Part shown: positions 3,265-26,441 of the stretch, piece by piece
Layout of the letters: the number at the start of each line of letters is the position of its first letter
Position numbering within the stretch: the first letter of the stretch is position 1
NCBI GenBank assembly: GCA_003210095.1
Contig: QCNP01000003.1
Span: 3,503 to 67,502 of the forward strand
DNA from: Pelagibacteraceae bacterium AG-426-E17
GTDB lineage: Bacteria; Pseudomonadota; Alphaproteobacteria; Pelagibacterales; Pelagibacteraceae
Direction of reading: 5' to 3'
DNA: 64,000 bases
The notes under the pieces: model-generated
What the model saw: only the letters and a program-made list of their open reading frames with translations
Database searches by the model: none
Told to the model about the DNA's origin: nothing
Program-made: the position numbers and the translations under genes

Positions 3265-3267
3265 AAT

Positions 3268-8585: not shown

Positions 8586-8588
8586 TCA

Positions 8589-9002: not shown

Positions 9003-9036
9003 TATCTTTTTAAAAATCAACTGTTATTATAATTTT

Positions 9037-10053
9037 ATGCAGAAAGTAAATGTATTAGTTGCCGGTTCCACAGGATATATTGGTATCCAATTAATAAAAT
9101 TATTAATAAAACATAAATTTATAAAAATTAAATATCTTTGTGGAAATTCATCAGTAGGAAAAAATATTAGTAATTATGATATAAATTTAAAGAAAAAAAA
9201 ATTACCTAAAATTAAAAAATTAAATTACAATTTTTTTAGTAATGTAGATGTTATATTTACAGCATTACCAAATGGTGAAAGTCAAATAATTTCCAATCAT
9301 TTGAAAAAAAATAATATATTAATAGATTTATCAGCAGATTTTAGACTTCAAAATAAAGATATTTATGAAGAATTTTACAAAATTAAACACAAATCTATAA
9401 AAAATATTAAAAATAGTATTTATGCTTTACCCGAAATAATTAAAAATAAGATTAAAAATAAAAAAATTATTTCCTGTCCTGGATGTTACCCGACATCAAT
9501 TTTATTACCTCTTATTCCATTATTAAAGAAAAAATTGGTAAATAAAAATATAATTGTTGACTCTAAATCTGGGTATTCTGGTGCTGGCAGATCTATACAT
9601 AAAAAATATAAAAATCATAACCTTTATGAATCTTTGAGCGTTTATGGAATTCCAAAACATAGACATAACTCAGAAATTCAACAAGAATTTAATAGAATAT
9701 CAAAAAAGATTTCGTTTGAATTTACACCTCATTTAATACCTATGTTCAGAGGGATTTTATCTACTATTTATGTGGAAAAGAAAAAAAATGTTTCTACAAA
9801 AAAATTGTTAAAATATTTAAAAGAATTTTATAAAAATGATAAATTTATAAGAATTAAAAAAATGAATAAATTATTAAGTACAAATGATGTTATAAATACA
9901 AACTATTGTGACATTTCGATTTGTGAAAGTAATATAAAAAATAAAATAATTATATTATCTGCTATTGATAACTTGATAAAAGGAGGCGCAGGTCAAGCTA
10001 TACAAAATTTAAATTATAAATATAATTTTAGGATGACAGAGGGTTTAATATGA
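9037..10053 (+). CDS. argC: N-acetyl-gamma-glutamyl-phosphate reductase
   Basis: GSTGYIG, IDLSADFR, PGCYPT, SGYSGAG, DNLIKGGAGQAIQN. Confidence 0.95.
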   Translation: MQKVNVLVAGSTGYIGIQLIKLLIKHKFIKIKYLCGNSSVGKNISNYDINLKKKKLPKIKKLNYNFFSNVDVIFTALPNGESQIISNHLKKNNILIDLSADFRLQNKDIYEEFYKIKHKSIKNIKNSIYALPEIIKNKIKNKKIISCPGCYPTSILLPLIPLLKKKLVNKNIIVDSKSGYSGAGRSIHKKYKNHNLYESLSVYGIPKHRHNSEIQQEFNRISKKISFEFTPHLIPMFRGILSTIYVEKKKNVSTKKLLKYLKEFYKNDKFIRIKKMNKLLSTNDVINTNYCDISICESNIKNKIIILSAIDNLIKGGAGQAIQNLNYKYNFRMTEGLI

Positions 10054-10226
10054 AATTTATTATTTTTTTTCTTCTATTATTCACAATTTCTTGCAGTAAT
10101 TTAGACAAATCAAATAAACACGATTTTATTGATGTTGATATAAATAAAGAACTTTCATTTAATGAATATAAAGAAATAATACAAAAGAAAGGTATGTCAA
10201 AAAAATTTCCGAATATAAATGAATAA
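10050..10226 (+). CDS. Small putative lipoprotein (58 aa)
   Basis: Hand translation MKFIIFFLLLFTISCSNLDK...FPNINE*; signal peptide with lipobox TIS-C; overlaps the argC stop and hom start. Not in the ORF track. Confidence 0.7.
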   Translation: MKFIIFFLLLFTISCSNLDKSNKHDFIDVDINKELSFNEYKEIIQKKGMSKKFPNINE

Positions 10227-11511
10227 TAATGTTAATATAGCTATAATTGGATTAGGTCAGGTTGGGGGTTATTTATATAAAGAGCTTTTAAAAAATAGAT
10301 TAAATATAAATTTATTAACAGGAAAAAAAATAAATATAGTTGCTATATCAGCTAAAAATTTGAAAAAAAAAAGACAATTTAAACTTAATAAAAAAATTTT
10401 TTATTCAAATCCTTTAAAAGTTATTAAAAAAGAGAAAATAGACATTTTATTTGAATGTATAGGTTTAGCTGATGGAATTTCAAAAAAAATTGTAGAAAAC
10501 GCTTTAAGAAGAAAAATTCATATAATCACACCTAATAAAGCTTTAATATCGAAACACGGAGACTATTTAAGCAAAATTGCAGAGAAGAATAAAGTAAATT
10601 TAGAATTTGAAGCATCTGTTGGTGGGGGAATTCCAATTTTAAGAACTATAAAAGAGGGCCTAGCAACAAATAAAATTAGTAAAGTTTATGGAATTTTAAA
10701 TGGAACTTGTAATTATATATTATCAGAAATGGAAAAAACAAAAGACAATTTTAGGAATGTGCTCAGAAAGGCTCAGAAACTGGGATATGCTGAGCCAGGT
10801 AACCCCAAACTTGATTTAAATGGATATGATGCCTTCGCTAAAGTTAAAATCCTATCTGCTTTAGCCTTTAATAAACGTCTTTCAAATTCAGTATCTTTAA
10901 TGGAAGGAATAGAAAATGTAGAACCAAAAGATTTTGAAATAGCTGATCAATTAAACCTTAGAATTAAACTGTTAGGCATAACAGAAATTATTAATAATAA
11001 ACTTTTTGAAAGAGTCCATCCATGTTTAGTCAAAAAAAATACATATATTGGAAACGTGAATGGTGTAATGAATGCAGTTATATTAGAAGGTAAACCAGTT
11101 GGTGAAAGTGTTTTACAAGGTGAGGGGGCAGGGCCTGAACCTACATCATCAGCGCTGATGTCAGATTTAATGTCAATTTTGAGAGGAAATATTAAATACC
11201 CTTTTGGTATTCCAACAGCAAAAAGAAAAAAAATTAAAAGTTATGATCTTAATAATTATGAAAATTCTTTATATATTCGTTTTGAAGTAAAAGACAAACA
11301 AGGTGTATTATCTCAAATTACAAAAAATTTAGCTAATAATAAAATATCTATTCAAAGATTAATACAAATTCCAAATAATAAAAATAAAACAGCTTCAATT
11401 GTTATTATTACGCATGCAACTAAACAAATACATTCAGATAAATGTTTAAGATTATTACAAAAAAACAAAAATGTGCTTAAAAAGCCTGTTTTATTAAGGC
11501 TTTTTAAATAA
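10219..11511 (+). CDS. hom: Homoserine dehydrogenase (C-terminal ACT domain)
   Basis: IGLGQVG, EASVGGGIP, GILNGTCNYIL, GYAEP, GEGAGPEPTSSA. Confidence 0.95.
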   Translation: MNNNVNIAIIGLGQVGGYLYKELLKNRLNINLLTGKKINIVAISAKNLKKKRQFKLNKKIFYSNPLKVIKKEKIDILFECIGLADGISKKIVENALRRKIHIITPNKALISKHGDYLSKIAEKNKVNLEFEASVGGGIPILRTIKEGLATNKISKVYGILNGTCNYILSEMEKTKDNFRNVLRKAQKLGYAEPGNPKLDLNGYDAFAKVKILSALAFNKRLSNSVSLMEGIENVEPKDFEIADQLNLRIKLLGITEIINNKLFERVHPCLVKKNTYIGNVNGVMNAVILEGKPVGESVLQGEGAGPEPTSSALMSDLMSILRGNIKYPFGIPTAKRKKIKSYDLNNYENSLYIRFEVKDKQGVLSQITKNLANNKISIQRLIQIPNNKNKTASIVIITHATKQIHSDKCLRLLQKNKNVLKKPVLLRLFK

Positions 11512-12407
11512 TGGAAATATACATAAAGTTATTTGAGGTTATTTTCCCAGTTTTTTTTGTTATTGGCATTGGCTATTACTTAGGTAAAAAAAATCCAAAA
11601 TTTGACACTAATTTTATAACAAATTTTGCTGGAAATATTGGTACACCAGCTATGATTTTTTATACTGTTACAACAACTGGTATAACTTTGAATATTTTTA
11701 TTCATTACTTTGTATATGCTATTTTAATGATTGTGGGTTTTGCAGTTGTAGGTCTTATAATGCTTTTCCTACTTAAAAAAGATCTTAGTATGGAACTCCC
11801 ACCATTAATTCTTCCAAATACTGGTAATATGGGTGTTCCAATTTGCTTATTTGCTTATGGAACTCAAGGTCTAGGGGTGGCATCAGCCGTAGCTTCTGTA
11901 ATTATCTTATTTCATTTTACATTAGGTGTTTTTTTAGCAAAAAAGAATTTTTCTTTTGATATTCTTATTAAAAGCCCTCCTGTATACGCAATTATAGTAT
12001 CTGTTTTTTTTCTGTTTTTTGATATTAAAACTCCTTTGTTTCTTGAAAACACAACTTTTCTTCTTACTTACGCAACTATTTTTTTGGTATTGATGTCTTT
12101 AGGTATTGCGTTAACAAGGTTTAAATTTTCTTTTCGAGACTCAATTATATTTTCATTTTTAAGAGTTATAATAGGTCCAATTATAGGCTTTGCTGTAATT
12201 TATTATTTTGATCTTTCAGGATATCCTGCAGGAGTACTTTTGATACAAAGTGCTATGCCAAGTGCTATATTAAACTATTTAGTTGGTAGTATGTACTCGC
12301 CAAAAAAAATAGTAGATAGTATAGCTAGTACAATAGTTGTATCAACATTAATTTCTTTTATAACAATACCAATTATAGTTTACATAGCTCTCAAATATTT
12401 TTCATAA
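11511..12407 (+). CDS. AEC-family (auxin efflux carrier-like) permease
   Basis: Multi-TM protein; PNTGNMGVP and QSAMPSA motifs. Confidence 0.85.
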   Translation: MEIYIKLFEVIFPVFFVIGIGYYLGKKNPKFDTNFITNFAGNIGTPAMIFYTVTTTGITLNIFIHYFVYAILMIVGFAVVGLIMLFLLKKDLSMELPPLILPNTGNMGVPICLFAYGTQGLGVASAVASVIILFHFTLGVFLAKKNFSFDILIKSPPVYAIIVSVFFLFFDIKTPLFLENTTFLLTYATIFLVLMSLGIALTRFKFSFRDSIIFSFLRVIIGPIIGFAVIYYFDLSGYPAGVLLIQSAMPSAILNYLVGSMYSPKKIVDSIASTIVVSTLISFITIPIIVYIALKYFS

Positions 12408-13387
12408 TGAAAATTTGCTTTTTAGATAATGTAAATATTTCTTATACTTCTGAAGACATGTATTCAAATAAGGTTCGTGGAGCCGAAAATATTCTGATAA
12501 ATTTATCAAGAGAGTTCTGTAGATTAAATCACGACGTAACAATTTTTAATAATTGTAAAATAAATAATAAAATTGATAATGTTAATTGGATAAATTTAAA
12601 TAGTGTTAATGACAAACCTCATTTTGATTTAGCAATTTCCAATAATGATATCAAATTATTTGATAAAATAAGTGCCGCAAAAAAAATAGCAATATCTCAT
12701 AGCATTCAATCTATAGAAAAATTTGTTAGAAAAGGTCAACTGATTTCATATTTGAAACATAAACCAAAAATTGTTTTACTAGGAAAATATCATAAATCTA
12801 ATCGTAATATATTATTAAGATTATTTGGTTCATTTACAATTTCATGGGCTGTAGACGATATTTTTTTAAATTCTCAAATTCATAATCAAGTATTAAAAAA
12901 CCAAGCTATTTTTACCTCATATCCAGACAGAAATTTAAATTTATTAATCAATATTTGGAAAAACAAAATTTTTGCAAATAATAGGAATAAAAAACTATTA
13001 ATTACTCCTATTAAAGAAAATTATGAAAAATATAATATTTTTAATAGAGAATTTGGTAATAAATCAAAATTAATAGATGATATTTTAAATTCTAGAATTT
13101 ATTTAATTCCCGGTCATAAAGCAGAGTTATATTGTATTGCAGCTGAAGAAGCCAGAGAACTTTGCATTCCTATAATCACACTTGGTATCGGTAGTCTAAG
13201 TGAAAGAGTTCAACATTATAAAACAGGTTTTGTTGCAAAAAACTCTAATGAATTTGCTGATTATACAACAGCATTATTTAATGACCATAACCTATGGTTT
13301 GATATAAGAAAAAATCTTATTAAATTGAGAGGGTTAAAAAAATGGAAAAATACAGCTATTGAATTTTTAAATAATATAAATGATTAG
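12407..13387 (+). CDS. Glycosyltransferase (GT-B, GT4-like)
   Basis: RGAENILINL N-terminus; FTSYPDRNL; ELYCIAAEEA acceptor-loop-like motif. Confidence 0.75.
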   Translation: MKICFLDNVNISYTSEDMYSNKVRGAENILINLSREFCRLNHDVTIFNNCKINNKIDNVNWINLNSVNDKPHFDLAISNNDIKLFDKISAAKKIAISHSIQSIEKFVRKGQLISYLKHKPKIVLLGKYHKSNRNILLRLFGSFTISWAVDDIFLNSQIHNQVLKNQAIFTSYPDRNLNLLINIWKNKIFANNRNKKLLITPIKENYEKYNIFNREFGNKSKLIDDILNSRIYLIPGHKAELYCIAAEEARELCIPIITLGIGSLSERVQHYKTGFVAKNSNEFADYTTALFNDHNLWFDIRKNLIKLRGLKKWKNTAIEFLNNIND

Positions 13388-14135
13388 ATTTAATAAATTT
13401 TTTGAGAGAATATCTAGATTATTTAATATTATGATTTCAGATAATTATAAATTGAGTCATAAGTATCAAAATAAAAATCAAGTTACAAATACTAAAATTG
13501 TATTAAATTTACTTAAAAATAAAAACTTTAAACCAAAGATAATAGTTGATATTGGTTGTGGATATGGTCAATGGACCAAGGAAACTATAAAGTATTATCC
13601 TAACGCAAATTATTTTCTTTTTGACGCTGATATAAACAACCAACATAAGTTAGAGATTTTAAAAAAAAAATACAACAATTTACAATTTAAAATTTGTCTT
13701 TTATCTGATGATAACGCTAAGTATAAATTTTTTAACATGGGTTATGGATCATCTATTTTTGAAGAACAAACAAATCATAAAAGATTGATTCAAGAAATTA
13801 AGTCAACAACTTTAGTTCAAGAACTTCCATCTAGCATAAAAAATCAAACTAATAATCTTATTAAACTTGACGTGCAGGGCGCTGAACTTAAAGTGCTTGA
13901 TGGTTTAAAAGATTATATAAACTTTTTTGAAATTATTATTTTGGAAGTTTCTTTACATAATTACAATAAAGACGCTCCATTATTTGATAAAATTATGAGC
14001 TATATGTATAATAAAGACTATAAACTATATGATATATTTGACTTAAAAAGACTAGGTGAAGCTAATTCCGTTTTAATACAATTTGACTGTATGTTTGTTA
14101 AAAAAGATTCTGATTTATTTAATGTTAAATTTTAA
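13380..14135 (+). CDS. FkbM-family SAM-dependent methyltransferase
   Basis: VDIGCGYG motif I; LIKLDVQGAELKVLDG. Confidence 0.88.
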   Translation: MIRFNKFFERISRLFNIMISDNYKLSHKYQNKNQVTNTKIVLNLLKNKNFKPKIIVDIGCGYGQWTKETIKYYPNANYFLFDADINNQHKLEILKKKYNNLQFKICLLSDDNAKYKFFNMGYGSSIFEEQTNHKRLIQEIKSTTLVQELPSSIKNQTNNLIKLDVQGAELKVLDGLKDYINFFEIIILEVSLHNYNKDAPLFDKIMSYMYNKDYKLYDIFDLKRLGEANSVLIQFDCMFVKKDSDLFNVKF

Positions 14136-14166
14136 ATTTTTACATTTAAAACAATTTAACTTATTT

Positions 14167-15120
14167 TCATATTTTAATATTTTTTAAAGCATTATTTTTG
14201 AAAATATTAGCTTCTCTTATATATCTTCTAACCATCTGACTTGTTTTGTGACCAGTCATTGCCATTATACTACGTTCATCAGCACCAGACTCTGCAGCGA
14301 CAGTTGCAAAACCTGATCTTAAACTATGACCTGCAAAATTTTTATTTTCTATACCTGCTAAATTTAAATATTCTTTCATTAATAAAACTACTGATTGATC
14401 AGTTAATCTTTTTTCAGTTAATGATAAACCTTTTGAAAATCTTCTAAAAATTGGTCCAGATTTAATTTTAGAAATTTCTAACCATTTTTTAAGATTAACA
14501 ATTGGACAATAATTTTCATTAGTGAAGTAGGGTAGTCCTTTAATCATCCCTTCACCAAATTGATCAGTTTTTGATCTTTTAATAGTGATTTTGAGACCCT
14601 CAGGTACAAATTCTAAATCTTCATGATCAATTGAAATTAGCTCAGTTCGTCTAAAACCTCCTCCAAAGCCCACTAAGATAATTGATTTGTCTCTATACTT
14701 CTTTATGTCTTCAATTTTTTGTTCATTTATTGTATTAATTATTGATTTTAAATGATTGATTAATATAGGTTTTTTACCTTTCTGAATGCTTCCTTTTACC
14801 CTTTTTATTCCCATTAAATTTTCAACAATAATTGGGTGTTTTGTATCTAAATAATGTCCTTTAAGTTTATGAACCATGCATATAGACACTAATCTTCTCC
14901 TTAAAGTACTGATTTTTGAATTTTTAGAAAGATGGGTTAGGTATAATGAGACTATTTTTGGCTCTGATGGCAGGGAATTTAAACCATGTTTAGCGCAAAA
15001 AGCTCCAAAATCTTTAAAGTCTGATTTATATGCTCTTAAAGTGTTATTTGCTTTTGAGCTTTTGAGATTATTTAGTGTTGCCTCGTAAAGCAATTTTAGG
15101 TCTGTTGTAAGTTCATTCAT
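14167..15120 (-). CDS. Cre-like tyrosine site-specific recombinase
   Basis: Intact catalytic set R (GFRRTEL), K (RSKTDQ), HxxR (HSLR), H (GHKT), Y (RRYI); SAM-like N-terminus (NTLRAYKSD); no obvious arm-binding domain. Confidence 0.92.
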   Translation of the reverse strand: MNELTTDLKLLYEATLNNLKSSKANNTLRAYKSDFKDFGAFCAKHGLNSLPSEPKIVSLYLTHLSKNSKISTLRRRLVSICMVHKLKGHYLDTKHPIIVENLMGIKRVKGSIQKGKKPILINHLKSIINTINEQKIEDIKKYRDKSIILVGFGGGFRRTELISIDHEDLEFVPEGLKITIKRSKTDQFGEGMIKGLPYFTNENYCPIVNLKKWLEISKIKSGPIFRRFSKGLSLTEKRLTDQSVVLLMKEYLNLAGIENKNFAGHSLRSGFATVAAESGADERSIMAMTGHKTSQMVRRYIREANIFKNNALKNIKI

Positions 15121-15122
15121 AT

Positions 15123-15159
15123 TATTACTATTGATAACAATTAATTATCAATACTAATA
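15123..15159. repeat. lox/dif-like inverted repeat, candidate recombination site
   Basis: TATTACTATTGATAA-CAATTAA-TTATCAATACTAATA: 15-bp arms with 14/15 pairs complementary, 7-nt asymmetric spacer, starting 3 nt upstream of the recombinase ATG. Confidence 0.65.
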
Positions 15160-15285
15160 TAGCATCAATTTATTTAAGTCAACAAGATAATTTAAAAAAA
15201 GTTATCAACATAATTCACAAAGCTTTAAATAAAACAATTAAAAAGTGATACATTAGACTCTTATAATTTGATATTAATTATTTAA

Positions 15286-15468
15286 TTAAGGGGCAACCCT
15301 TAACTGGCCGACTGGGGAAAGGCCGAGAGGACCAAGCCCAGGGGGCAGAAAGTCTTACGGAGTAGCGCTAAAATCGTAGGGCGGAAGGCATGGCGGTAGC
15401 GCATACAACGACGTGCCAAAACTACTGTTCTTTGCACCGTAAAAAGTGCAGAGAAACAGGGGTTTTTT
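15286..15468 (+). ncRNA. Putative structured non-coding RNA, family not identified
   Basis: About 59% GC over 15291-15420 (77/130 by hand count) in a very AT-rich genome; GNRA hairpin at the 5' end, two apparent pseudoknots, 3' hairpin plus T-tract; no plausible protein. Confidence 0.75.
15425..15468 (+). terminator. Intrinsic terminator-like hairpin ending the putative ncRNA
   Basis: CTGTT-CTTTGCAC-CGTAAAAA-GTGCAGAG-A-AACAG followed by GGGTTTTTT. Confidence 0.5.
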
Positions 15469-15472
15469 CTTC

Positions 15473-15742
15473 ATGAAAGGCACTAAATTTCAAATCAAAG
15501 TCTGGAAATATCTTAAAAAGATCCCTAAAGGAACAGTCAGAACATATAAAGATGTTGCAAAAGCTATAAATAAGCCAAAAGCAGCGCGGGCTGTAGCAAA
15601 TGCCTGCGCTAAAAACCCATATGCTCCAAAAATACCTTGTCATAGAGTAATTAGGTCTGATGGAGGCCTTGGTGGCTATTCTGGCAGAGGTGGGGCAAAA
15701 AAAAAAGTAAGCTTATTGAGGTCTGAAAAAGTTCAAATTTAA
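15473..15742 (+). CDS. ogt: Methylated-DNA--protein-cysteine methyltransferase, minimal single-domain form (89 aa)
   Basis: FQIKVW..L..IPKG...TY, PCHRVI active site. ATG 15473 lies after the terminator hairpin, so it is preferred to the track start. Confidence 0.9.
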   Translation: MKGTKFQIKVWKYLKKIPKGTVRTYKDVAKAINKPKAARAVANACAKNPYAPKIPCHRVIRSDGGLGGYSGRGGAKKKVSLLRSEKVQI

Positions 15743-16169
15743 CCTTTTTTAGTTGATATAACGATTAAAAAAGCTAATAAAATCAACAATTATTGATCAA
15801 TTTTCTATTATTAAAAGAAATTATTATATTTCACCCTTTAGTTGTACCATATAAAACAATTTGCTTAAATTTGACCCTTCTGTGTTCGTTTAAATGGCAT
15901 ATTCATATACTGCATCCCTCTACTATTTAACAATATAAACACTTTCAGAAAACTCTATTTTATGGTTTGGAAGCGTTTTTTTTGTTTAAAAAGTCCTATA
16001 TTTCAATGTTTTTATGATATTAGTAAATAACACAATTAAATTTAGTATTTTTACTTAATTAATTTTATATTATTTTATCGAATTATAATAAGATAATAAA
16101 TTCAATAAAATCAATAGTTTATATTATACTATTAAAGTAAAACTCAAATATTTAGTAAACTAAGTTTAC

Positions 16170-17024
16170 CTATATTTTAATTTTCTTAACAATATTCTCT
16201 CTTCTAGAGATATATATTCCACTAAAAACTATGATAAACAAGCCTAAAAAAGTCCAACTATCTGGAAAATCACCAAAGAAATAATAAGCAATAATGATAT
16301 TAGTTACGATCTCAAAATAACTAAATGGTGCTAATTTGGATGCATCAGCAAATTTCAAAGATAAAATAATAAAAAGATGACCTATGCAAGCTAATAAACC
16401 GATAGCTGTCATTATAGACCATTGATTAAAAGTTGGAGAAACCCAAACAAAAGGCATGAATGTTGTAGAGATAATGGCCCCTACTACACCTGTAAATAAT
16501 AAAGTTAACAATGGGTTATCTGAAGTACTAAGCCTACGAGTAATTATTAAATAAAAACCATACATAATACCAGTTCCAAGTGCTGCTAAACTTGCTAGAT
16601 TTATTTCTACAAAACCTGGTTTAATGACAACTAGAGATCCTATAAAACCAATAATTACTGCTGTCCATCTTCTGTAGCCTACAGACTCACCCAAGAAAAT
16701 AGGAGAAAAAGAAGTTACAACCAGTGGAGCCACAAATGCAAGTGTTAATGCCTTAGGAAGTGAAATAACTGAAATTGAGTAAAAAAAACTTATGTTCGCA
16801 GTTAATAAAATCAAACCTCTGATTAATTGTAATTTTGGTTTGTCAGTCCAAACTAAATACTTTTTAAAGAAAAAAAACATTAAAGGAAAGGTAAATACAA
16901 CAGTGAAAAAATATCTAGCCCAAGTTATTTGAAGAACTGGAAGATCTGAGCTTAAATATTTAGCAAATCCATCCATTATAGGCAATATAACCCAAGCTAA
17001 AAGATTATAAATTATCGCTTTCAT
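16170..17024 (-). CDS. DMT/EamA-family transporter
   Basis: About 10 TM in two EamA repeats; LAPFSYFEIV, GDFPD. Confidence 0.88.
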   Translation of the reverse strand: MKAIIYNLLAWVILPIMDGFAKYLSSDLPVLQITWARYFFTVVFTFPLMFFFFKKYLVWTDKPKLQLIRGLILLTANISFFYSISVISLPKALTLAFVAPLVVTSFSPIFLGESVGYRRWTAVIIGFIGSLVVIKPGFVEINLASLAALGTGIMYGFYLIITRRLSTSDNPLLTLLFTGVVGAIISTTFMPFVWVSPTFNQWSIMTAIGLLACIGHLFIILSLKFADASKLAPFSYFEIVTNIIIAYYFFGDFPDSWTFLGLFIIVFSGIYISRRENIVKKIKI

Positions 17025-17065
17025 AAAACATAAATTTAGAAAGAAAAATATACTACATACATAAC

Positions 17066-17947
17066 TTATGCTTTTTTATCAAAATAAGAATAAATATATT
17101 TCAAATAAAAATAATATAATTTACAGATAACAAAATCTATAAGAAAACTTAATGTATAATTTGGTTTTATAGGAAGTTCGCCTATATATTTTGTGTTAGA
17201 TTTTAGAAAATATTTCTTAAAAAATTTATAAGAAATGCCCCATTTTAATAAAAAGATTTTAGATCCTTTTGTACCAGACCAGATTTTATTCTTATCATTT
17301 TTTTCAGACTTACGAGTCACAACAGAACCAAAATGGTATACTTTAAAATCATTAATACCTTTAAAAATTCTTACACCTTTTTTCCAGAGCTTCATATTCA
17401 AATCTGGATCTGAAGCTGCTCCTGGCCAAAATTCTAAACTAAAACCACCTATATCGTTCCATAATTTTTTATGAATTACATGTGGTGCCCAAGTAGATCC
17501 TTGAAAATCGTAAAAATTATATTTTTTGTAATTTGTTAGAAATTTTTCTTCATTAAAATCTAGGTATGTTTGTCCACAATCAAAAGATATTTGTCCGTTA
17601 TTTATCATTGTCCCAGATAAATAAAATCTATCATGGCCAATAGAGTAAATTTCATTTTTAAGTATTACATCCCAATTCGGACAAAAATAAAAATCATCAT
17701 GGGCATATAAAATATAATCCATTTTACTTTTTTTTGCTGCAGTATTGACACCTTCACAAATACCAGCGTTATAATCAGTAAATGTATAGTTTATCTTTTT
17801 TTGTTTTAAATAATCAGTAGTACCATCATTACCTATACTCACATGAACTAAAATCTCATTATTTAAAGAAGAATTTTTACTCAAACTATCCAAACATAAT
17901 TTTAAATAATTTATATTATTTAATGTGGGAATAATAATTGAAAACAT
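17066..17947 (-). CDS. Glycosyltransferase family 2
   Basis: FSIIIPTLN start, HDD motif, IGGFS.EF, SDPDLNMKLW. Confidence 0.88.
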   Translation of the reverse strand: MFSIIIPTLNNINYLKLCLDSLSKNSSLNNEILVHVSIGNDGTTDYLKQKKINYTFTDYNAGICEGVNTAAKKSKMDYILYAHDDFYFCPNWDVILKNEIYSIGHDRFYLSGTMINNGQISFDCGQTYLDFNEEKFLTNYKKYNFYDFQGSTWAPHVIHKKLWNDIGGFSLEFWPGAASDPDLNMKLWKKGVRIFKGINDFKVYHFGSVVTRKSEKNDKNKIWSGTKGSKIFLLKWGISYKFFKKYFLKSNTKYIGELPIKPNYTLSFLIDFVICKLYYFYLKYIYSYFDKKA

Positions 17948-20059
17948 TTAAGACCAAATGACCTGTTTTTTTAATTTAAAATCAAATGATTTGGACAAAA
18001 TATATTCTGATACTATGTCAGAATTAAAATATTTAAGATATTTTATTTTTCCTTGTCGTGCTATTTGCTTCCCCTTTTTTTTATCTTTTTTATATTTATT
18101 TAGTTTATAACTTAGATCAGATAAATTTTTGTAAAAAATAAGTTCATCACTTGTAAAAAAATCACTCAAATAGGTGTTTTTATCAATAAATGTTAAAAGT
18201 CCATTACCAACTAATTGAACTATACGATCACTGCTGTAATATTTTATTGGTTTGCCTCTACTTAAATTTAAACCCATATAAGAATTTGAAATTTTTTTAA
18301 TAAATTGATCTGCCCATATTGGTTGAACATTATTCATTCCATAAACATCAAACTTTATATTTTTATTAAGTTTTATAAGTTTATTAATAAAGTTTTCTCT
18401 ATCATCACCTTTTCCACTTTTTAATTGACCTCTATGAACACCATGGCTCATTGCAAAAAAAACATCATAAGCGCAATTTTTGTTATAATTATTAAGAACC
18501 TCAAATGATTTATCTGCAGGATTTGGCATAAAAAATGAATTTGGTATTTTAATCTGTAGTGCTGAAGGATCAGTGGTTAAAAAAGTATTATCTAGTAATT
18601 TAACTTTATCTAATATTCTTCTAGTATTATTTTCATGGTCAGGTCCATACTTTGATAAAGGATCTAAAAACCATTGAGAAAACTTTGTTGAAGAATTGAT
18701 CTCCTTCATGATCTGCAATGTGTCATTTTTAACTCTGTCAGCGTGTCCTAAAATAACAATATCTGGTTTAAAATTTTTAAAAGTATCAACAATTTTTTTT
18801 TGTAAAGTAATTCTTCCAGACATATCTTTTATACTTTTATTATTGTGGATTATATCTCTATCACTAATTGATAAAACGTTATGGCCATTTCTTATAAAAC
18901 CATTATTTAATCTTCTACCTGTATTATAATGTAATCTTCCATCAAATCTTTCGTTAAAATTTGTAATATGCATTATCTTAAAAGATCTTTCTTTTTTTAT
19001 TATTAATGTATTATTAACAATAAATGCACTCCTAATTTTATCAATAATATTAGAAATATAATTATGGTCAAATTTAAAATTTTTATAATTTAAAATTTGA
19101 AATTTTTTTAATTTATTATGATTCAAAATTAAATCTTCAATATGTTCATAAAGATCATTTGTGTTTAAGGATTTAAGGATGATAGCATTTTTTGCAGTTT
19201 CAGGTAGACCTCCCCTATTACTTATAATTACTGCACATCCTCTACTAGCAGCCTCTAAACTAGTTCTACCAAAAGGCTCTTCCCATCTAGAGCATACTAC
19301 TGATATACTAACTTTATTTAATATATTTAGCACATCTTCGTGTTTAGTATAACCTCTAACATTTAAATTTTTATGTTCAAAATTTAATTTTTCTCGAGGC
19401 TCTTCTCCTATTACAATACCTTTCCAGTCACTATGTTTATTTAAAATTTTAATTATAGTTTTTCCAAAAATATCATATCCTTTAGCACTGTTTAGTTTTC
19501 CAATAAAAGAAATCAACTTTTTTTTATTTTTAAAATTGATTTTGACTCTGCCGGTTGACTGATAACAAATTGATGTTTTTTGTTTCAGTAAATTTTTGTT
19601 ATCTATACCAATAAAAAATCTTTCCTGAGACCATTCACTATTAAACAATATTTTATCAATTTTATTTAATAGATAAATTCTATCATTAGTAGATTTAGAG
19701 CCATTCATAGAGAGAGGATCGTTGTGAAAATATAAAATCAATTTTTTATTTTGTATTTTTTCCAAGTATTTTATGTAATTAGGTCTATTATGTATTTCTA
19801 TAATATCTGAATTTATATTTTTTTCTTTTTTTAAAAAATTAGCAACATAGTTTTTACTATTGCTTTGAATCAAAGATTTTTTTAATTCTATGTTAATGTA
19901 ATTTTTTAAAAAGGGTTTTTGTTTTTGCATATTACCGAAAACATAGGAGTTTTCAAAAAATTTACTATTTTCTATAGTATGTTTAACAAATAGAGATACT
20001 GCACCAGCATTATTTGGAGAAAAATTTTCTTTATAAGGCAGTAAAACTGATATTTTCAT
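17948..20059 (-). CDS. Two-domain glycosyltransferase (GT4 domain plus a second GT-B/CgeB-like domain)
   Basis: EEPFGRTSLEAASRG in the N-terminal half; LNLSRG...YSSDRIVQLVGNG in the C-terminal half. Confidence 0.8.
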   Translation of the reverse strand: MKISVLLPYKENFSPNNAGAVSLFVKHTIENSKFFENSYVFGNMQKQKPFLKNYINIELKKSLIQSNSKNYVANFLKKEKNINSDIIEIHNRPNYIKYLEKIQNKKLILYFHNDPLSMNGSKSTNDRIYLLNKIDKILFNSEWSQERFFIGIDNKNLLKQKTSICYQSTGRVKINFKNKKKLISFIGKLNSAKGYDIFGKTIIKILNKHSDWKGIVIGEEPREKLNFEHKNLNVRGYTKHEDVLNILNKVSISVVCSRWEEPFGRTSLEAASRGCAVIISNRGGLPETAKNAIILKSLNTNDLYEHIEDLILNHNKLKKFQILNYKNFKFDHNYISNIIDKIRSAFIVNNTLIIKKERSFKIMHITNFNERFDGRLHYNTGRRLNNGFIRNGHNVLSISDRDIIHNNKSIKDMSGRITLQKKIVDTFKNFKPDIVILGHADRVKNDTLQIMKEINSSTKFSQWFLDPLSKYGPDHENNTRRILDKVKLLDNTFLTTDPSALQIKIPNSFFMPNPADKSFEVLNNYNKNCAYDVFFAMSHGVHRGQLKSGKGDDRENFINKLIKLNKNIKFDVYGMNNVQPIWADQFIKKISNSYMGLNLSRGKPIKYYSSDRIVQLVGNGLLTFIDKNTYLSDFFTSDELIFYKNLSDLSYKLNKYKKDKKKGKQIARQGKIKYLKYFNSDIVSEYILSKSFDFKLKKQVIWS

Positions 20060-20318
20060 TTTTTAAAAATCTCTTTTTTATTTCATTTCTTAATTTAAAA
20101 TTTTTTTTTAATTTATATTCCTCTTTTAAGGCAATACTTTTATTTTTGTATTTTTTTGAATAGGCCAATTTCCAATTTTTACCTTTAGTAAATTTAGCAC
20201 CTTTTGAAACATTATGTAACAATAGTCTTTTTTTTAAGTTATTTGTATAACCAACGTATGATACTACTTGTGCTGCCTTTTTATTTATATTTACGATTAA
20301 ATATACAAAATAAGTCAT
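20031..20318 (-). CDS. GIY-YIG nuclease family protein (UPF0213/YhbQ-like)
   Basis: YFVYLI...SYVGYTNNLKKRLLLHN..KGAKFTKG...ALKEEYKLKK. Confidence 0.88.
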   Translation of the reverse strand: MTYFVYLIVNINKKAAQVVSYVGYTNNLKKRLLLHNVSKGAKFTKGKNWKLAYSKKYKNKSIALKEEYKLKKNFKLRNEIKKRFLKNENISFTAL

Positions 20319-20320
20319 AT

Positions 20321-20356
20321 TGGCGGTCCCTAGGGGAATCGAACCCCTCTTTCATG
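20321..20356 (-). repeat. 36-bp copy of the tRNA-Glu 3' end (att site)
   Basis: TGGCGGTCCCTAGGGGAATCGAACCCCTCTTTCATG is identical to 21814-21849. Confidence 0.95.
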
Positions 20357-20416
20357 AATCATGAACATTGTATTTTATAACTTTTTTCGTCTTCAAAATC
20401 AAAAAATTAGAATCAA

Positions 20417-20436
20417 GTGTGCCCAGAGTGTGCCCA
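20417..20436 (+). repeat. Tandem GTGTGCCCA x2 (11-bp period), putative integrase arm-type sites
   Basis: GTGTGCCCA-GA-GTGTGCCCA, 60 bp inside the left att. Confidence 0.7.
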
Positions 20437-20439
20437 CGA

Positions 20440-21108
20440 TTAATCACTTGCAGCCACATAAATTATAAAACCTATTGCAATTATTGGAAGAGCTGCACTT
20501 GAGTCTAGAATAATATAATTTAGTATCTTGTTTAATGCCCACCAACCAGTATCAAACCTACCATAATCACCTAATGTAAAAATCGTGACTCCCCAATCAC
20601 CTAAGGATATAGTTTTCCAAATACCAATTTTTAGCCAAACATAAATTGCATAAACAATATGTCCAGCACCTATAAGCATTATTCCTTGACCAATTAATCT
20701 GAAAAAAAGATTAATCCCATCTTCAATTGGTTGCTTAGCCTTACCACGGTTTTTGTAGAGTTTAGTGTTTGGAAAATAAAAATAGACATAAGACACTATT
20801 ATTAAAGAAATAGGTATTGTCCAAAATGAAATATTTTCCCCAGTTGGAAACTCTGAAAAAATAATAAAGTATCCAAACATCCAAATTAAAAAAAAACCAG
20901 CTATCAAATTAAAAATTCCCCAAAGAATATTTCCTAATTTGCTAGTTGCTAGCTTATTTTTTTTTGAAGGGTCTTTTAAACATTCGACTGCAAAAATTAA
21001 ACAAAGCAGTCCTAATGATTGCATAAATATCACCGTTATAAATAAAAACATAATTATATCATTGTGTCTGTCATTACTTACAGTAAGTTTTTGAATTTTT
21101 GAATGCAA
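20440..21108 (-). CDS. Hypothetical membrane protein (islet cargo)
   Basis: 222-aa ORF with about 5 hydrophobic segments; no family recognised; start uncertain. Confidence 0.65.
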   Translation of the reverse strand: MHSKIQKLTVSNDRHNDIIMFLFITVIFMQSLGLLCLIFAVECLKDPSKKNKLATSKLGNILWGIFNLIAGFFLIWMFGYFIIFSEFPTGENISFWTIPISLIIVSYVYFYFPNTKLYKNRGKAKQPIEDGINLFFRLIGQGIMLIGAGHIVYAIYVWLKIGIWKTISLGDWGVTIFTLGDYGRFDTGWWALNKILNYIILDSSAALPIIAIGFIIYVAASD

Positions 21109-21460
21109 CCGTTTCTTCTTTAAAGTTTACTAAAAGATCATTACCAGTAACTTGTGATTTTAATTTAGCAAAATTACTATCTACAAACATTACATCAAAA
21201 TCTAAAATTCTTATCTCTGGTAGTCTAAATTTTCGACCTTGCTGTTTCATTTTGTTGTTTTGTTTTTTTACGTATTTACTATTATACTCAACAACCATAC
21301 TTGCAGTTTCTTTATCTGTATCAATTGTATAATACCATTTATCAAACATACTCTTATCAAAACCATCACCTTTATGACATTTTTTTAATTTAATAATTTT
21401 TGAATACGAGGGACTAATAATTAAACATATTAAAATCGTGATCCCTAAAAGTTTTTTCAT
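21074..21460 (-). CDS. Hypothetical exported protein (islet cargo)
   Basis: 128 aa; N-terminal signal peptide MKKLLGITILICLIISPSYS; two Cys in the mature part. Confidence 0.65.
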   Translation of the reverse strand: MKKLLGITILICLIISPSYSKIIKLKKCHKGDGFDKSMFDKWYYTIDTDKETASMVVEYNSKYVKKQNNKMKQQGRKFRLPEIRILDFDVMFVDSNFAKLKSQVTGNDLLVNFKEETVAFKNSKTYCK

Positions 21461-21723
21461 CTTAATTTTCTGCCTTTAAATCTAAAATAATTAAATGCAC
21501 CTATTAATATCATTCCAATGATAACCCAGTGATCTTTGGTGTATCCATAAATAACTTGCTCTAAAGCCATTGCAATTATGAAAATTACAATGTTTATAAA
21601 TAAAGTGAAGAAAGCACCTGAAAAACATTTAGAAATTTTAACCTTTGATTTTTTCAAAATATTAAAATCATAAATTGAAACACCAAATAATGTAATTAGC
21701 ATAAGAAATCCAGCAGCTTCCAT
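21457..21723 (-). CDS. Hypothetical small membrane protein (islet cargo)
   Basis: 88 aa, about 3 TM segments, basic C-terminus; overlaps the next gene by 4 nt. Confidence 0.6.
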   Translation of the reverse strand: MEAAGFLMLITLFGVSIYDFNILKKSKVKISKCFSGAFFTLFINIVIFIIAMALEQVIYGYTKDHWVIIGMILIGAFNYFRFKGRKLR

Positions 21724-21738
21724 ATTTTAATTATATCA

Positions 21739-21758
21739 GTGTGCCCACAGTGTGCCCA
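21739..21758 (+). repeat. Tandem GTGTGCCCA x2 (11-bp period), putative integrase arm-type sites
   Basis: GTGTGCCCA-CA-GTGTGCCCA, 55 bp inside the right att; same orientation as 20417-20436. Confidence 0.7.
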
Positions 21759-21813
21759 GAGAGAAATTTTCGGCATAATTATTTAAATAAGTGTTAATGT
21801 ATTTAGCAACTAG

Positions 21814-21888
21814 TGGCGGTCCCTAGGGGAATCGAACCCCTCTTTCATGGATGAAAACCATGTGTCCTAACCGATAGACGAAGGGACC
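21814..21888 (-). tRNA. tRNA-Glu (TTC)
   Basis: GGTCCCT...AGGGACC-GCCA acceptor; CATGG-TTTTCAT-CCATG anticodon arm; GGTTCGATTCC T-arm. Confidence 0.97.
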
Positions 21889-21938
21889 AAATTCAAACCT
21901 TTTATTGTATAAAAAAAAATTAATCAAGTTTTAATAAA

Positions 21939-23615
21939 TTAAATTATCAAATCTTTAATATTAATTTGATAAAATTTTTTACCATTCCAAATTATTTCAT
22001 TAATATGACCCACTAAAGTAATATTTTTTTTGTAATTCATAAGGTGCATTCCTATATCTGTGTTAACTGCGTCAAATGCGATCGATTGTATTTGCCTACC
22101 ATTAAGGTTTTTTAATATGTTTTTAATATGTTTATTTTTAATTACGAAGGTTTTAATAATTTTTAAATTTTCAAATAATAGCAAAGGTTCAGAATTTCCA
22201 CTACCAAATGGCTCCAGTAGTTTTAAATCATTAATAAAATCAGATTTACTAAAAGAAATTTGATGTTTTAAATCATAAAAGTATGCTTTATTTATTTTGT
22301 TTTTACTAAACTCATCTGTTAGAATTTTTTTTAATATTGATAAATTTTTAATTTTTAATGTAAATCCAGCTGCTTGTTCATGACCGCCACCTTTTTCAAT
22401 GATTTTAAGATTTAATAATTTGGATATTATATTATTTAATTTAAAATTTGAATCTGATCTAGCTGATCCTTTTAAAATATTATTTGAATGAGTAATGACA
22501 AAAGCTGGTCTATTAAACTTTTCTTTTAATTTTCCAGCTAGGATTCCAATAATTCCTTCATGAAAATTTTTATTATATTCAAAAATTATATTGTGATTGT
22601 TGTAATATTTTTTTGTATCTATAAACTTAAAGTTTCTACTTTCAATTTCTTTTCTTTTGTTATTTATAAACATTAACTTTTTTAAAGTTATCAGTATTTT
22701 TTTTTTATTATCTAAAGTCAATAATTCTACTGAAATATTAGCAGTTGATATTCTCCCAGCGGAATTTAAGATTGGGCCAATTAAAAAAATTAAATCTTTA
22801 TAATCTATTTTCTTTTTTAAATTTAAATTTTCAATTAAAACATTTAATCCAGCATTGCTGCTTTTGTTAATTTTATCAAAAGCACATTTAGCTATATATC
22901 TATTTATACCTCTCATTGGCATTACATCGCATACACTACCTAATAATGATAATAAAAGAAATTTTTCTAATTTTATATCTAAATATTTAAACATTGAAAC
23001 AAGAATAAATGTTAGTGTTGATGCAGATAAATTCAAATTAAAATATTTTTTCGTATTTTTCATTGGGTTTATCAACACTATTTTTTTAGATACATTTTTA
23101 TTAATTTGATGATGATCGATAACTAATGTCTTTATATTTTTTTTTAAAAGATAATCGATTACTTCATTTGAATTGGTTCCACAATCAACAAATATCGCTG
23201 CTTTTGTATTCTTTTTTAATTTTTTTTTAATTAAACTTAAATTAGGACCATATCCATCAACAAACCTGTCAGGTAAAATATAATAATTAGGATGATTTAT
23301 GTCTTTAAAGAAATTAATTAAAATTGCAGTAGAAGTAATTCCATCTACATCATAATCTCCAAATATTAGAGTTAAATCTTTATTATTAATTATTTTTTTT
23401 AGTAAATTATAACCTTCAATAAAATCGAGGTTTTTGTTAAAGATATTTTCTATTTTTGGTAAATTTATAGAATAAAAAATTTCCTCATTTGTAAATTTTC
23501 TATTAATAAAAAAACTAGATAAATTTAAAGAAATTTTTTTGTCTAAAGATAATTTTTTAGCTTTTCTAAAATCGGTTTGTATATTATTCCATTTTTTTCC
23601 AGAAACAGAAATCAT
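21939..23615 (-). CDS. recJ: Single-stranded-DNA-specific exonuclease RecJ
   Basis: GDYDVDG, DGYGPN, DCGT, IDHH, GGGHEQAAG, LEPFGSGNSEP. Confidence 0.95.
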   Translation of the reverse strand: MISVSGKKWNNIQTDFRKAKKLSLDKKISLNLSSFFINRKFTNEEIFYSINLPKIENIFNKNLDFIEGYNLLKKIINNKDLTLIFGDYDVDGITSTAILINFFKDINHPNYYILPDRFVDGYGPNLSLIKKKLKKNTKAAIFVDCGTNSNEVIDYLLKKNIKTLVIDHHQINKNVSKKIVLINPMKNTKKYFNLNLSASTLTFILVSMFKYLDIKLEKFLLLSLLGSVCDVMPMRGINRYIAKCAFDKINKSSNAGLNVLIENLNLKKKIDYKDLIFLIGPILNSAGRISTANISVELLTLDNKKKILITLKKLMFINNKRKEIESRNFKFIDTKKYYNNHNIIFEYNKNFHEGIIGILAGKLKEKFNRPAFVITHSNNILKGSARSDSNFKLNNIISKLLNLKIIEKGGGHEQAAGFTLKIKNLSILKKILTDEFSKNKINKAYFYDLKHQISFSKSDFINDLKLLEPFGSGNSEPLLLFENLKIIKTFVIKNKHIKNILKNLNGRQIQSIAFDAVNTDIGMHLMNYKKNITLVGHINEIIWNGKKFYQINIKDLII

Positions 23616-24562
23616 ACAGATTTATTGAAGTTTCTGCTTATATTTTTTTTAATTTTTTGACTTTTGTGTGTTACAAAGGTATCGGTTATATATTCGTCAT
23701 TAATTATCTTAACACCTCTTGTGATGTCTCCGTCCGTAATACCTGTGGCACAAAAAATACTATCCCCTTTAACTATATCATTAATATTATATTTTTTATT
23801 CAAATCGTTAATTCCCATTTTATTTGCTCTCTCAATAATTTTGTCATCCTCAAACAACAATCTTCCTTGAAAACCACAGTTCATTGAATCTAAAGCGCAG
23901 GCTGCTAATACACCTTCAGGTCCACCACCAATACCAAGAAAAAGATCGACATTAAATTTTTTATCGGATACCAATATAGCACCTGTAACATCCCCATCAG
24001 TAATTAAATTTATTTTGATTTTTTTATGTCTCGCTTCGTCTATAATTTTTTTGTGCCTTGGTCTGTCTAATATACAAATTCTTAAATCCTCAATATTTTT
24101 ATTATTAAAATCTGCTAAATTTTCTATATTTTTTTTAAATGAGTAATCTAAATCAACCACACCAGGATCAATATGACTTCCAAATGCGATTTTTTCCATA
24201 TATGTTTCTGGGGCATTAAATAGGTTATTTTTATTAGCAGCTGCTATAACTGAAATTGATCCTCGCATATTTTTTGCAACAAAATTTGTACCTTCGACTG
24301 GATCTACGGCTATGTCAATATCATCGCCTCTCTGATTGCCTATAATCTCTCCAATATATAACATAGGTGCTTCATCTATCTCACCCTCACCTATAACTAC
24401 CCTGCCCTTCATACTAATTTCATTTAATTTTTGTCTCATTGAGTCCGTTGCTGATTTGTCGGCTGCTTTTTTATTATTTTTTCCTATATAAGGGTAAGTA
24501 GCTATTGCAGCATGTTGAGTTACAGAAACAAAGTCTTCTAAATATTCCTTTTTTATCACCAT
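23612..24562 (-). CDS. glpX: Fructose-1,6-bisphosphatase class II
   Basis: VIGEGEIDEAPML, IAVDPVEGT, ITDGDV, GIGGGPEGV, CATGITDG. Confidence 0.95.
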   Translation of the reverse strand: MVIKKEYLEDFVSVTQHAAIATYPYIGKNNKKAADKSATDSMRQKLNEISMKGRVVIGEGEIDEAPMLYIGEIIGNQRGDDIDIAVDPVEGTNFVAKNMRGSISVIAAANKNNLFNAPETYMEKIAFGSHIDPGVVDLDYSFKKNIENLADFNNKNIEDLRICILDRPRHKKIIDEARHKKIKINLITDGDVTGAILVSDKKFNVDLFLGIGGGPEGVLAACALDSMNCGFQGRLLFEDDKIIERANKMGINDLNKKYNINDIVKGDSIFCATGITDGDITRGVKIINDEYITDTFVTHKSQKIKKNISRNFNKSV

Positions 24563-25551
24563 TAAATATTAGCTTCGACTTTAGACAATTCTAGTTTTTT
24601 TTCAAATTCTGATAATCTTCTATGCACAGATATGAGTTCTACTATTATCGGCCAACTTCTAACTAAATACTGTAATGAATTTTCAACTTTATTAAATGCT
24701 CTTGCAATTTGTTGAACAAAACCTAGGGTTATTGCTCCTGTAACAATAGTTGGAGCTAGAGCTAAGTAAGGCACTATTACCATTCCTTGTAAGTAACTCC
24801 ATTTTACAGCATTAAAATACAAATAATGAAAGTACATTTTAAAATGTATTTTTCTAACGTTGCCATAAAGAAAATTTACGCTTTCATGTCCTGCTCTACC
24901 TAAACTTTCCTCACCTAAAACTAATTCTTTCCTGTATGCAGCTTCTTCTTTTTGTATGTCATATTCTATCCCTGGAAGTTTAAAACCTACAGCAGCTAAC
25001 AAAACCGTTCCTCCTAAAGCAGATAATACAGCAACCCAAACTAAAGCATGATTTACTTCACCAATAAAAGGAAGTGCAGTGATCTGCTTAGATAATCCCC
25101 ATAAAATTGGTAAAAAAGCAATTAATGTCATTAAACTTCTTAATAATTCAACTCCTAAACCTTCCATAATTCTTGCAAATTTAAGTGTATCCTCTTGAAC
25201 TCTCTGTGATGCTCCTTCAGTTAAACGAGCCTTTGTCCAATTTTCATGATAGTAATCTGCCATTGCTGTTCTCCATCTAAAAGTCCAATGACTAGTAAAA
25301 TAATCTGTGGCAACAGAGAGTACCATCCAAACTCCAGCTATTTTTGCAAATGTAAGAAGATAAGATATAAATTCTTTTTCAGACACTGAGTTTGGAGTTG
25401 TTAATGCTTTTTGCAGGGTATCATAGAACTCACCAAACCATTGATTAATCATGACATCAAGCTGCACTTGATACCATGTAGAAACAAGTATTACTATTGA
25501 TCCAAATATGCTCCAAGGATACCAATTTTTATTTGTAAAAAATTTAAACAT
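24562..25551 (-). CDS. SbmA/BacA-family peptide transporter
   Basis: FTSHWTFRWRTAMADYY, EGASQRVQEDT, KEEAAYRKELVLGE; no ATPase domain. Confidence 0.88.
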   Translation of the reverse strand: MFKFFTNKNWYPWSIFGSIVILVSTWYQVQLDVMINQWFGEFYDTLQKALTTPNSVSEKEFISYLLTFAKIAGVWMVLSVATDYFTSHWTFRWRTAMADYYHENWTKARLTEGASQRVQEDTLKFARIMEGLGVELLRSLMTLIAFLPILWGLSKQITALPFIGEVNHALVWVAVLSALGGTVLLAAVGFKLPGIEYDIQKEEAAYRKELVLGEESLGRAGHESVNFLYGNVRKIHFKMYFHYLYFNAVKWSYLQGMVIVPYLALAPTIVTGAITLGFVQQIARAFNKVENSLQYLVRSWPIIVELISVHRRLSEFEKKLELSKVEANI

Positions 25552-25835: not shown

Positions 25836-25839
25836 AAAA

Positions 25840-25916
<77 letters not shown>

Positions 25917-26440: not shown

Positions 26441-26441
26441 A

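Follow-up and report, generated by a model that had tools for sequence, protein, structure and literature searches.

The DNA analysed here, 64,000 nt in length and called the window below, corresponds to positions 3503-67502 of contig C3 (QCNP01000003.1, assembly GCA_003210095.1) of Pelagibacteraceae bacterium AG-426-E17 (genome G000). It spans the replication terminus of a SAR11 chromosome, that is, the junction of two replication arms. At this junction the gene for a Cre-like tyrosine recombinase is abutted, directly upstream, by an imperfect palindrome, and gene direction flips there. The palindrome is a candidate dif/lox-like site. The observations are very probably accounted for as a whole by a terminus at 14.1-15.2 kb of the window, a recombinase and palindrome that would form a dimer-resolving pair, and octamers of the FtsK-orienting polar sequence (KOPS) type that provide no evidence. 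KOPS are described in the available text of PMC2680272 as words oriented from origin to terminus.

Position of the terminus in the whole genome

The G000 assembly consists of 1,151,069 bp in five contigs, is 99.3% complete and has a GC content of 27-29% by contig. The window carries an alphaproteobacterial housekeeping gene set, and the nearly identical homologues of the recombinase (88-93%) are named 'integrase' or 'site-specific integrase [Candidatus Pelagibacter sp.]'; the source is therefore a SAR11 bacterium. Genes of the window were counted as non-overlapping open reading frames (ORFs) of at least 50 aa, dnaA (C1:449,465 in G000) was used as origin proxy, and the ring order of the contigs was obtained by blastn onto a single-contig relative, G007 (1,200,090 bp), which was itself analysed over its entire genome for skew and orientation. 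The resulting order is C1-C3-C2-C5/C4. In G007 coordinates the end of C1 is placed at 692,724, C3 at 692,386 to 628,416, C2 at 627,602 to 505,605, C5 and C4 at 505,300 to 500,108, and the start of C1 at 496,462. The contig flanks are collinear with G007 at all four junctions.

Along C1 (966 kb) the gene orientation curve descends as far as about 415 kb, levels off until about 590 kb and then climbs to the contig end. The orientation curve of C2 is monotonic, with 86 genes on the minus strand and 20 on the plus strand, and that of C3 goes up to 17.6 kb and then down. The three curves therefore require the terminus to lie in the part of the ring that leads from the end of C1 back to its start. 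With dnaA as the zero point of the 1,151,069-bp ring, the cumulative curves reach their maxima at 534,461 (orientation) and 534,450 (GC skew). Both lie 1 kb from the palindrome, whose position, 535,465, is 0.465 genome lengths from dnaA. When the detrended skew minimum is used as the starting point the palindrome lies at 0.494, and the arms are in a proportion of about 49/51%.

An initial annotation of the window, made from its letters, had proposed that the window spans ter and had named cumulative GC skew over the genome and the distance from dnaA as checks. Both bear the proposal out, with the skew maximum next to the palindrome and dnaA roughly opposite. The support comes from genome-wide data and from relatives, neither of which the initial annotation had, and G007 and all 20 relatives described below agree with it.

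The terminus in related genomes

The global skew and orientation maxima of G007 are at 673.7-674.7 kb, and its recombinase gene is at 673,711-674,658. The orientation maximum itself is at 673,715, and the skew maximum falls in the chunk that ends at the recombinase start. For 20 single-contig genomes, with recombinases 53-93% identical to that of G000, the flanks of the gene were compared over 20 kb in both directions from the recombinase start. In all 20, the low-coordinate 20 kb carry mostly plus-strand genes (12-19 vs 4-9) and have positive skew, and the high-coordinate 20 kb carry mostly minus-strand genes (14-20 vs 2-5) and have negative skew. Distances to dnaA are given for these 20 genomes only, which have exact lengths, and the recombinase is 0.402-0.487 genome lengths from dnaA in 19 of them.

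The initial annotation had also held that the position of ter supports a dif role independently of the sequence of the site. The presence of the flip at the recombinase in 20/20 relatives sustains this point, and the position of the flip adds support for a dimer-resolution role that is independent of the site's own sequence.

Among the 20 relatives the recombinase is found on either strand at the junction. A 2.9-kb block with recombinase, palindrome, IMES-2 and ogt (window 14140-17027, C3:17642-20529) is inverted relative to G007 (G007:673678-676508), and both of its flanks are collinear. The module can thus sit in either orientation at the junction. A search for inverted repeats that bound the 2.9-kb module gave just AT-rich matches of about 70-87% complementarity and a sole pair of 95% (I23, 20 nt), which lies inside the module; no match is located at the block borders. 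The hom gene switches from one side of the terminus to the other between strains and always points inward. On the scale of whole genomes, inversions between G000 and G007 form an X-like pattern, and one 281-kb block, C1:228-509 kb, contains dnaA.

Strand switch within the window

Left of 15122 the window has 16 genes on the plus strand and three on the minus strand, the recombinase being one of the three, and the interval 181..14135 has just two minus-strand genes. Right of 15160 there are 13 plus-strand and 40 minus-strand genes. The two sides differ with a Fisher p of 1.4e-5 when genes are treated as independent. The counts in the initial annotation (17 and 4 on the left, 13 and 44 on the right) were close to these; its 13 plus-strand genes on the right stand and its other three figures change slightly in the recount. 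Its further statements that the ribosomal protein genes on the left point right and that three of the four tRNAs on the right point left are correct: the genes for L13 and S9 are on the plus strand at 8127-9002, and the four tRNA genes of the window are all right of the site, three of them on the minus strand.

GC skew is positive in the left arm, and the cumulative skew of the window peaks at 12-14 kb. It is negative in the right arm except at blocks of plus-strand genes at about 26-28, 37-40 and 46-49 kb. Over the whole of contig C3 the cumulative skew maximum is at 17,626, or window 14,124, at the 3' end of the recombinase gene. At the scale of the window a convergent switch of this kind is not unique and is not above chance on its own. 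Only a widening of the scale to 100 kb leaves a single maximum, that of the site, made up of seven positions at most 20 kb from it. A convergent switch at C1:271000-278000, inside one replication arm, exceeds the terminus at the 15-50 kb scale.

Origin of the GC skew

First codon positions are G-rich, with a GC skew of about +0.45 whichever strand is the coding one, and cumulative GC skew therefore traces the gene strand. Analysis by codon position found no mutational skew that is separable from gene strand, and the flip is not locatable from neutral sites. The GC-skew flip is a by-product of the gene-strand flip and carries no independent mutational signal. About 65% of gene bases are co-oriented with replication genome-wide and about 80% in the terminus flanks. 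Because genes are preferentially co-oriented with replication, their direction flips at the meeting of the two arms, here at 14.1-15.2 kb of the window.

With coding strand controlled for, T-rich hexamers such as TTTTTC and ATTTTT show a slight excess on the leading strand of G000 and G007 (z of about 5). The asymmetry in these two genomes is weak, and its GC component runs counter to the direction usually seen.

A Cre-like recombinase beside a unique palindrome

The recombinase gene is transcribed away from the palindrome and against the local gene direction. Its product scores far below the cut-offs of the Xer models: 69 bits for XerD (cut-off 329.6), 59.8 for XerC (335.15) and 40.9 for NCBIfam XerS (267). 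A profile of the recombinase family run with hmmsearch matches Cre with E=1.8e-34, XerD with 2.5e-20 and XerH with 8.7e-7, and the Cre match spans profile positions 28-309 and Cre residues 34-329. The AlphaFold2 model (pLDDT 94.7) aligns in Foldseek to Cre with a TM of 0.80-0.83 and to XerH with 0.62; identity to Cre in structural alignments is 16-18%. No variation is seen across 61 homologues at R157/R158, K184, H265, R268 or Y300, and at least 90% of them retain H291. The protein is a Cre-like tyrosine recombinase with conserved catalytic Arg, Lys, His, Arg, His and Tyr.

The gene is present in 58/60 genomes of the family, one gene each, with 53-94% identity to the query; the match in one genome is split in two pieces, and the tally takes in the unpublished genome G109. 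With the same query the gene was not detected in any of 60 genomes of a sister family, f2, which belongs to this order. When 13 genomes of that family (L114-L119, for example) were searched separately with Pfam, 12 had two canonical Xer-scoring recombinases of 305-325 aa (PF00589 E 1e-39 to 1e-48), and the single Cre-like recombinase of the Pelagibacteraceae matches PF00589 with E 1e-18 to 1e-24, with extra integrases in some genomes. XerC and XerD are absent from G000, which has one PF00589 match in its 99.3% complete genome. RecA is present. As far as the available text of PMC3090418 and PMC5069961 goes, the xerD gene of strain HTCC1062 (SAR11_1019) rises with recA both in the light and when sulfur is limiting. 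We take SAR11_1019 to be the same recombinase gene, from its listing beside metY and hppA.

The palindrome is unique in the genome, where no other 37-mer matches it within eight substitutions. Its core is present at the recombinase loci of 30/30 relatives, with the consensus ATTACTATTGATAACaATTAATTATCatTAgTAAT, and in 10/10 further relatives. Beyond the palindrome the DNA is completely different between close relatives. A GTCAA motif (TTGAC on the strand of the gene) is conserved, and the palindrome is situated between GTCAA and the recombinase start codon. A reading of the conserved TTGAC as the recombinase promoter is not supported by a scan of 14000-16300, which gave nine promoter-like sites vs 12.8 expected.

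KOPS-like octamers

Two inward-pointing octamers had been offered by the initial annotation as further support for ter. Both copies of GGGCAGGG are in place (Table 1) and are the only matches to GGGNAGGG in the window, and the GGCAGGG 7-mers that it reported are present inside the recombinase gene and at 62587-62593 (+). As support for ter the octamers fail: two matches compare with 0.97 expected, and 23 of 100 shuffles give at least two; both are coding-strand words, and the word is not over-represented. The octamers point inward because the hom and glpX genes point inward. GGCAGGG-type 7-mers number four in the window vs 1.07 expected, and two of the four are parts of the octamers. The two GGGNAGGG octamers of the window are not evidence for FtsK guidance.

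The strand scan over the whole genome, also proposed by the initial annotation, gives 13 matches to GGGNAGGG in 1.15 Mb, nine on the leading and four on the lagging strand, with 12/13 on the coding strand. G007 has 12 in 1.20 Mb (10 leading, 2 lagging). The frequency is thus about 1 per 90-100 kb, and in the two genomes together 22/24 genic matches are on the coding strand. The leading share of 19/25 (76%) compares with a mean of 66% and a range of 43-81% for words of the same composition (six G, one A, one N), among which GGGNAGGG ranks 44th of 56 by count. A count over 36 single-contig genomes gives 528 matches to GGGNAGGG vs 586 to the reversed control, so that the word is the rarer of the two.

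In 11 further single-contig genomes 120/144 matches (83%) are on the leading strand. In eight genomes GGG[CGT]AGGG is found 66 times on the leading and 10 times on the lagging strand (87%), vs 53 and 24 (69%) for the reversed control, with a Fisher p of 0.011 when kinship is ignored. Of 18 genomes, 16 have at least one match within 20 kb of the site; all 21 of these matches point inward, and their density over the 18 genomes is about 1 per 34 kb. The near-site matches in the 11 genomes examined number 16 and fall in nine gene groups, with hom contributing five. The hom octamer occupies the same codons in four relatives, one codon (3 nt) upstream of the G000 position; the hom matches share one motif across genomes and are therefore not independent. 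Clade-wide polarity of GGGNAGGG is suggestive only. G000 has an FtsK, encoded by a frame of 698 aa at C1:363.6 kb, whose gamma domain matches PF09397 with 99.3 bits.

A scan of G000 and G007 for polar 6-, 7- and 8-mers with coding-strand control, which could test only word families with at least 60 matches and so lies above the count of GGGNAGGG, found no G-rich word; the best words, with z of 4-5.5, were T-rich hexamers. Several candidate polar words were discarded. The top 7- and 8-mers found de novo on C1 are 72-81% leading in 40-74 matches, which fits a 62% baseline and multiple testing. GAGAAGGG, the polar word of B. subtilis, has 12-13 matches per genome, and GAAGAAG, that of L. lactis, is 58-61% leading, equal to the baseline.

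Neighbouring features

The features of the window are collected in Table 1. The IMES-2 small RNA gene is single-copy in the genome. A promoter-like TTAAAA-18-TATAAT at 15238-15267 (10-of-12 match) ends 12 nt upstream of it. IMES-2 lies at most 1.5 kb from the recombinase in 5/20 relatives' loci, all among the closest relatives, and is a neighbour of the module and not part of the terminus signal.

Genes for glycosyltransferases and FkbM methyltransferases flank the module at 12407-14135 and 17066-20059. The left pair of envelope genes (C3:15902-17642) has no G007 counterpart, and the terminus is therefore bordered by strain-variable envelope genes. Further right, three consecutive ORFs of 222, 128 and 88 aa at 20440-21723 (-) have no Pfam match at E <=1e-5. 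They are located between a small GIY-YIG gene and a tRNA-Glu gene, in a stretch that is unaligned to G007 at the 800-bp level.

Table 1. Features of the terminus region in window coordinates.
Feature	Position	Strand	Remarks
End of one replication arm, about 14 kb	181..14135	+	Genes run towards the site (ORFs and Pfam): H+-pyrophosphatase, plsX, HU/IHF-like, ctaA, L13, S9, semialdehyde dehydrogenase, hom, transporter, glycosyltransferase, FkbM methyltransferase
GGGCAGGG	11126..11133	+	Within homoserine dehydrogenase gene (10219-11511), coding strand
Tyrosine recombinase, 317 aa, Cre family	14167..15120	-	Sole PF00589 match in genome
GGCAGGG 7-mer (7-of-8 near match of the initial annotation)	14969..14975	+	Inside recombinase gene, template strand
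37-nt imperfect palindrome TATTACTATTGATAACAATTAATTATCAATACTAATA	15123..15159		14-15-nt arms, 7-nt asymmetric centre
IMES-2 small RNA gene	15279..15419	+	Rfam RF02035, 158 bits vs gathering score 54.7; full-length
ogt-like short gene, 98 aa	15446..15742	+	PF01035 1.8e-33; TIGR00589 102.5 bits; DNA-binding domain only
Start of other replication arm, about 48 kb	16170..64000	-	Mostly minus-strand genes, towards the site
GGGCAGGG	24400..24407	-	Within glpX-type fructose-1,6-bisphosphatase gene (23612-24562), coding strand

Discussion

The layout of the module suggests that the recombinase and the palindrome would resolve chromosome dimers at the terminus, by analogy with XerS/difSL and XerH/difH. 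RecA-dependent crossing-over would join sister chromosomes, and division would bring the two copies of the palindrome together at the septum. The Cre-like enzyme could then act on both copies so that the sister chromosomes are separated, and FtsK may help. We lean slightly towards the view that in the Pelagibacteraceae XerCD/dif is replaced by a single recombinase of the Cre family with a lox-like site of 35-37 bp at the arm junction. A bolder addition would be guidance of FtsK to the site by sparse, inward-pointing GGGNAGGG words.

Several points weigh against a terminus with a dimer-resolving pair at this position. The minima of orientation and of skew extend over a broad stretch (C1:340-600 kb), and dnaA serves only as an origin proxy. 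Many large inversions separate G000 from G007, so that the ring order depends on just the four junctions. Skew and gene orientation make up a single line of evidence, and third-position GC skew is 0.058-0.078 in leading-strand genes vs 0.102-0.126 in lagging-strand genes. In one relative, G031, dnaA is just 0.140 genome lengths from the recombinase (dnaA at 468758 and recombinase at 662233 of a C1 contig of 1,382,291 bp); the local flip is kept. With the geometry of the window, 15 kb to the left and 49 kb to the right, 54/2303 ring grid positions switch equally or more strongly, and the separate convergent switch at C1:271-278 kb has S=1.60 vs 1.00 at the terminus site. The terminus is placed by strand asymmetry, and the actual point at which forks meet could lie some kb off. 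As for the module, a published survey (PMC2731167) states, in the part of its text available, that a dif/Xer system is absent from P. ubique.

The frequency of equal or stronger switches at window scale, the division of the assembly into five contigs and the inversion of the 2.9-kb block relative to G007 are what would be expected if the strand flip were a local feature, caused by an inversion, an operon arrangement or a misassembly, with the true terminus in a contig gap. The initial annotation had itself named a switch elsewhere, a local inversion or a misassembly as outcomes that would count against ter. The maxima of both cumulative curves are instead at the site, G007 has the same coincidence in its whole genome, the flip recurs in every one of the 20 relatives, collinearity of the contig flanks with G007 holds at the four junctions, the curve of C2 is monotonic, and C1 is directed at its two ends towards C3 and C2. 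A local flip is already largely refuted by these data and is extremely improbable. It is also conceivable that the terminus is real and that the recombinase and palindrome are an island integrase and its attachment site, or that the palindrome is an operator on which the recombinase itself or a different protein acts to regulate the gene. The sequence past the palindrome is wholly different in close relatives and the glycosyltransferase genes beside the module are strain-specific; the closest homologues outside SAR11 (about 40% identity), in unrelated bacteria, are annotated as generic site-specific integrases; and the location of the palindrome between start codon and GTCAA is, in our reading, operator-like. 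However, the recombinase is a single gene in nearly all genomes of the family, and the site has one copy per genome, so that no second att-like site bounds an element. The module stays in place at the flip between two variable flanks, there is no other Xer-type enzyme although RecA is present, and the sister family keeps two canonical Xer-like genes. An integrase or an operator is thus quite unlikely.

A third possibility, which is compatible with a terminus and a dimer-resolving pair at this position, is that GGGNAGGG is a sparse FtsK-orienting polar word selected to point at the site. The FtsK gamma domain, the leading-strand excess in the 11 further genomes, the difference from the reversed control in eight genomes and the uniformly inward matches near the site are all in its favour. 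The density of KOPS in E. coli is far higher than the 12-13 matches per SAR11 genome, which are too sparse to steer a translocase. The window count is close to expectation, genic matches are nearly all on the coding strand, the rank and the leading share are inside the range of the composition class, and the reversed control is the more frequent word. Moreover, the polarity near the site is predicted by gene direction, and the scan with coding-strand control gave no G-rich polar word. We find selection of this word for a role in guiding FtsK rather doubtful.

A chromosome dimer-resolving module at the terminus, the reading preferred here, can be compared with three known systems. The E. coli-type terminus, with dif, XerC-XerD, FtsK and the KOPS GGGNAGGG, is similar in having an arm junction roughly opposite dnaA, a cumulative skew maximum with convergent gene direction at the junction, a unique AT-rich palindromic site there and an FtsK with a gamma domain. 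Unlike it, SAR11 has no XerC/XerD and one Cre-family recombinase only, its GGGNAGGG words are rare, on the coding strand and not over-represented, and its skew has no detectable mutational component. A length of 28 bp is given for dif in the abstract of PMC2731167, whereas the SAR11 site has arms of 14-15 nt and a centre of 7 nt. The same text describes difH and difSL as palindromic sites with the recombinase gene beside them, at the skew-defined terminus and in non-coding low-GC DNA. The SAR11 module shows all of these layout features of XerS/difSL (streptococci, lactococci) and XerH/difH (Helicobacter, Campylobacter). Its protein belongs to neither family (XerS 40.9 vs 267 bits; XerH 8.7e-7, TM 0.62), and its host is an alphaproteobacterium.

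The third system is Cre/loxP of phage P1, in which loxP has 13-bp repeats and an 8-bp spacer and Cre resolves dimers of the P1 plasmid. Cre is the best profile and fold match of the SAR11 protein over nearly its full length, the catalytic residues are conserved, and the SAR11 site likewise consists of inverted repeats around a short asymmetric centre. Unlike Cre, the SAR11 gene is chromosomal, a single-copy core gene of a free-living family, located at the terminus and 16-18% identical. A Pfam search of the window ORFs found no phage or plasmid genes near the module.

A 2026 preprint marks the SAR11 terminus in its figures and names 'XerC and XerD', and its available text has no description of a site. 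A search of the available literature, which left the supplements (PMC2731167 Table S4, bioRxiv) outside, found no description of a SAR11 dif site, of a Cre-like resolvase or of the coincidence of site and terminus. A replication terminus is in itself an ordinary feature of circular chromosomes, and finding one is routine; the present finding is of moderate interest, through the recombinase/palindrome module only. It pins the terminus of a SAR11 chromosome to within about 1 kb, and this position coincides, as in 20/20 relatives, with the cell's single Cre-like recombinase and a unique palindrome. The coincidence provides positional evidence for dimer resolution where PMC2731167, in the text available, lists no dif/Xer system. 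In a low-GC streamlined genome, GC skew only shadows the gene strand, and a handful of E. coli-type KOPS words is unusable here as evidence of polarity. As an anchor point the terminus is of use for orienting and scaffolding SAR11 assemblies. It also aids the interpretation of the inversions, symmetric about origin and terminus, that are found between strains and described in the available part of the 2026 preprint.

If dimer resolution by this module is correct, it would contradict the statement on P. ubique in the available text of PMC2731167. It would add a further independent case of dimer resolution by a single recombinase beside XerS, XerH and the archaeal XerA, and Cre-like dimer resolution would operate in the ocean's most abundant bacteria.

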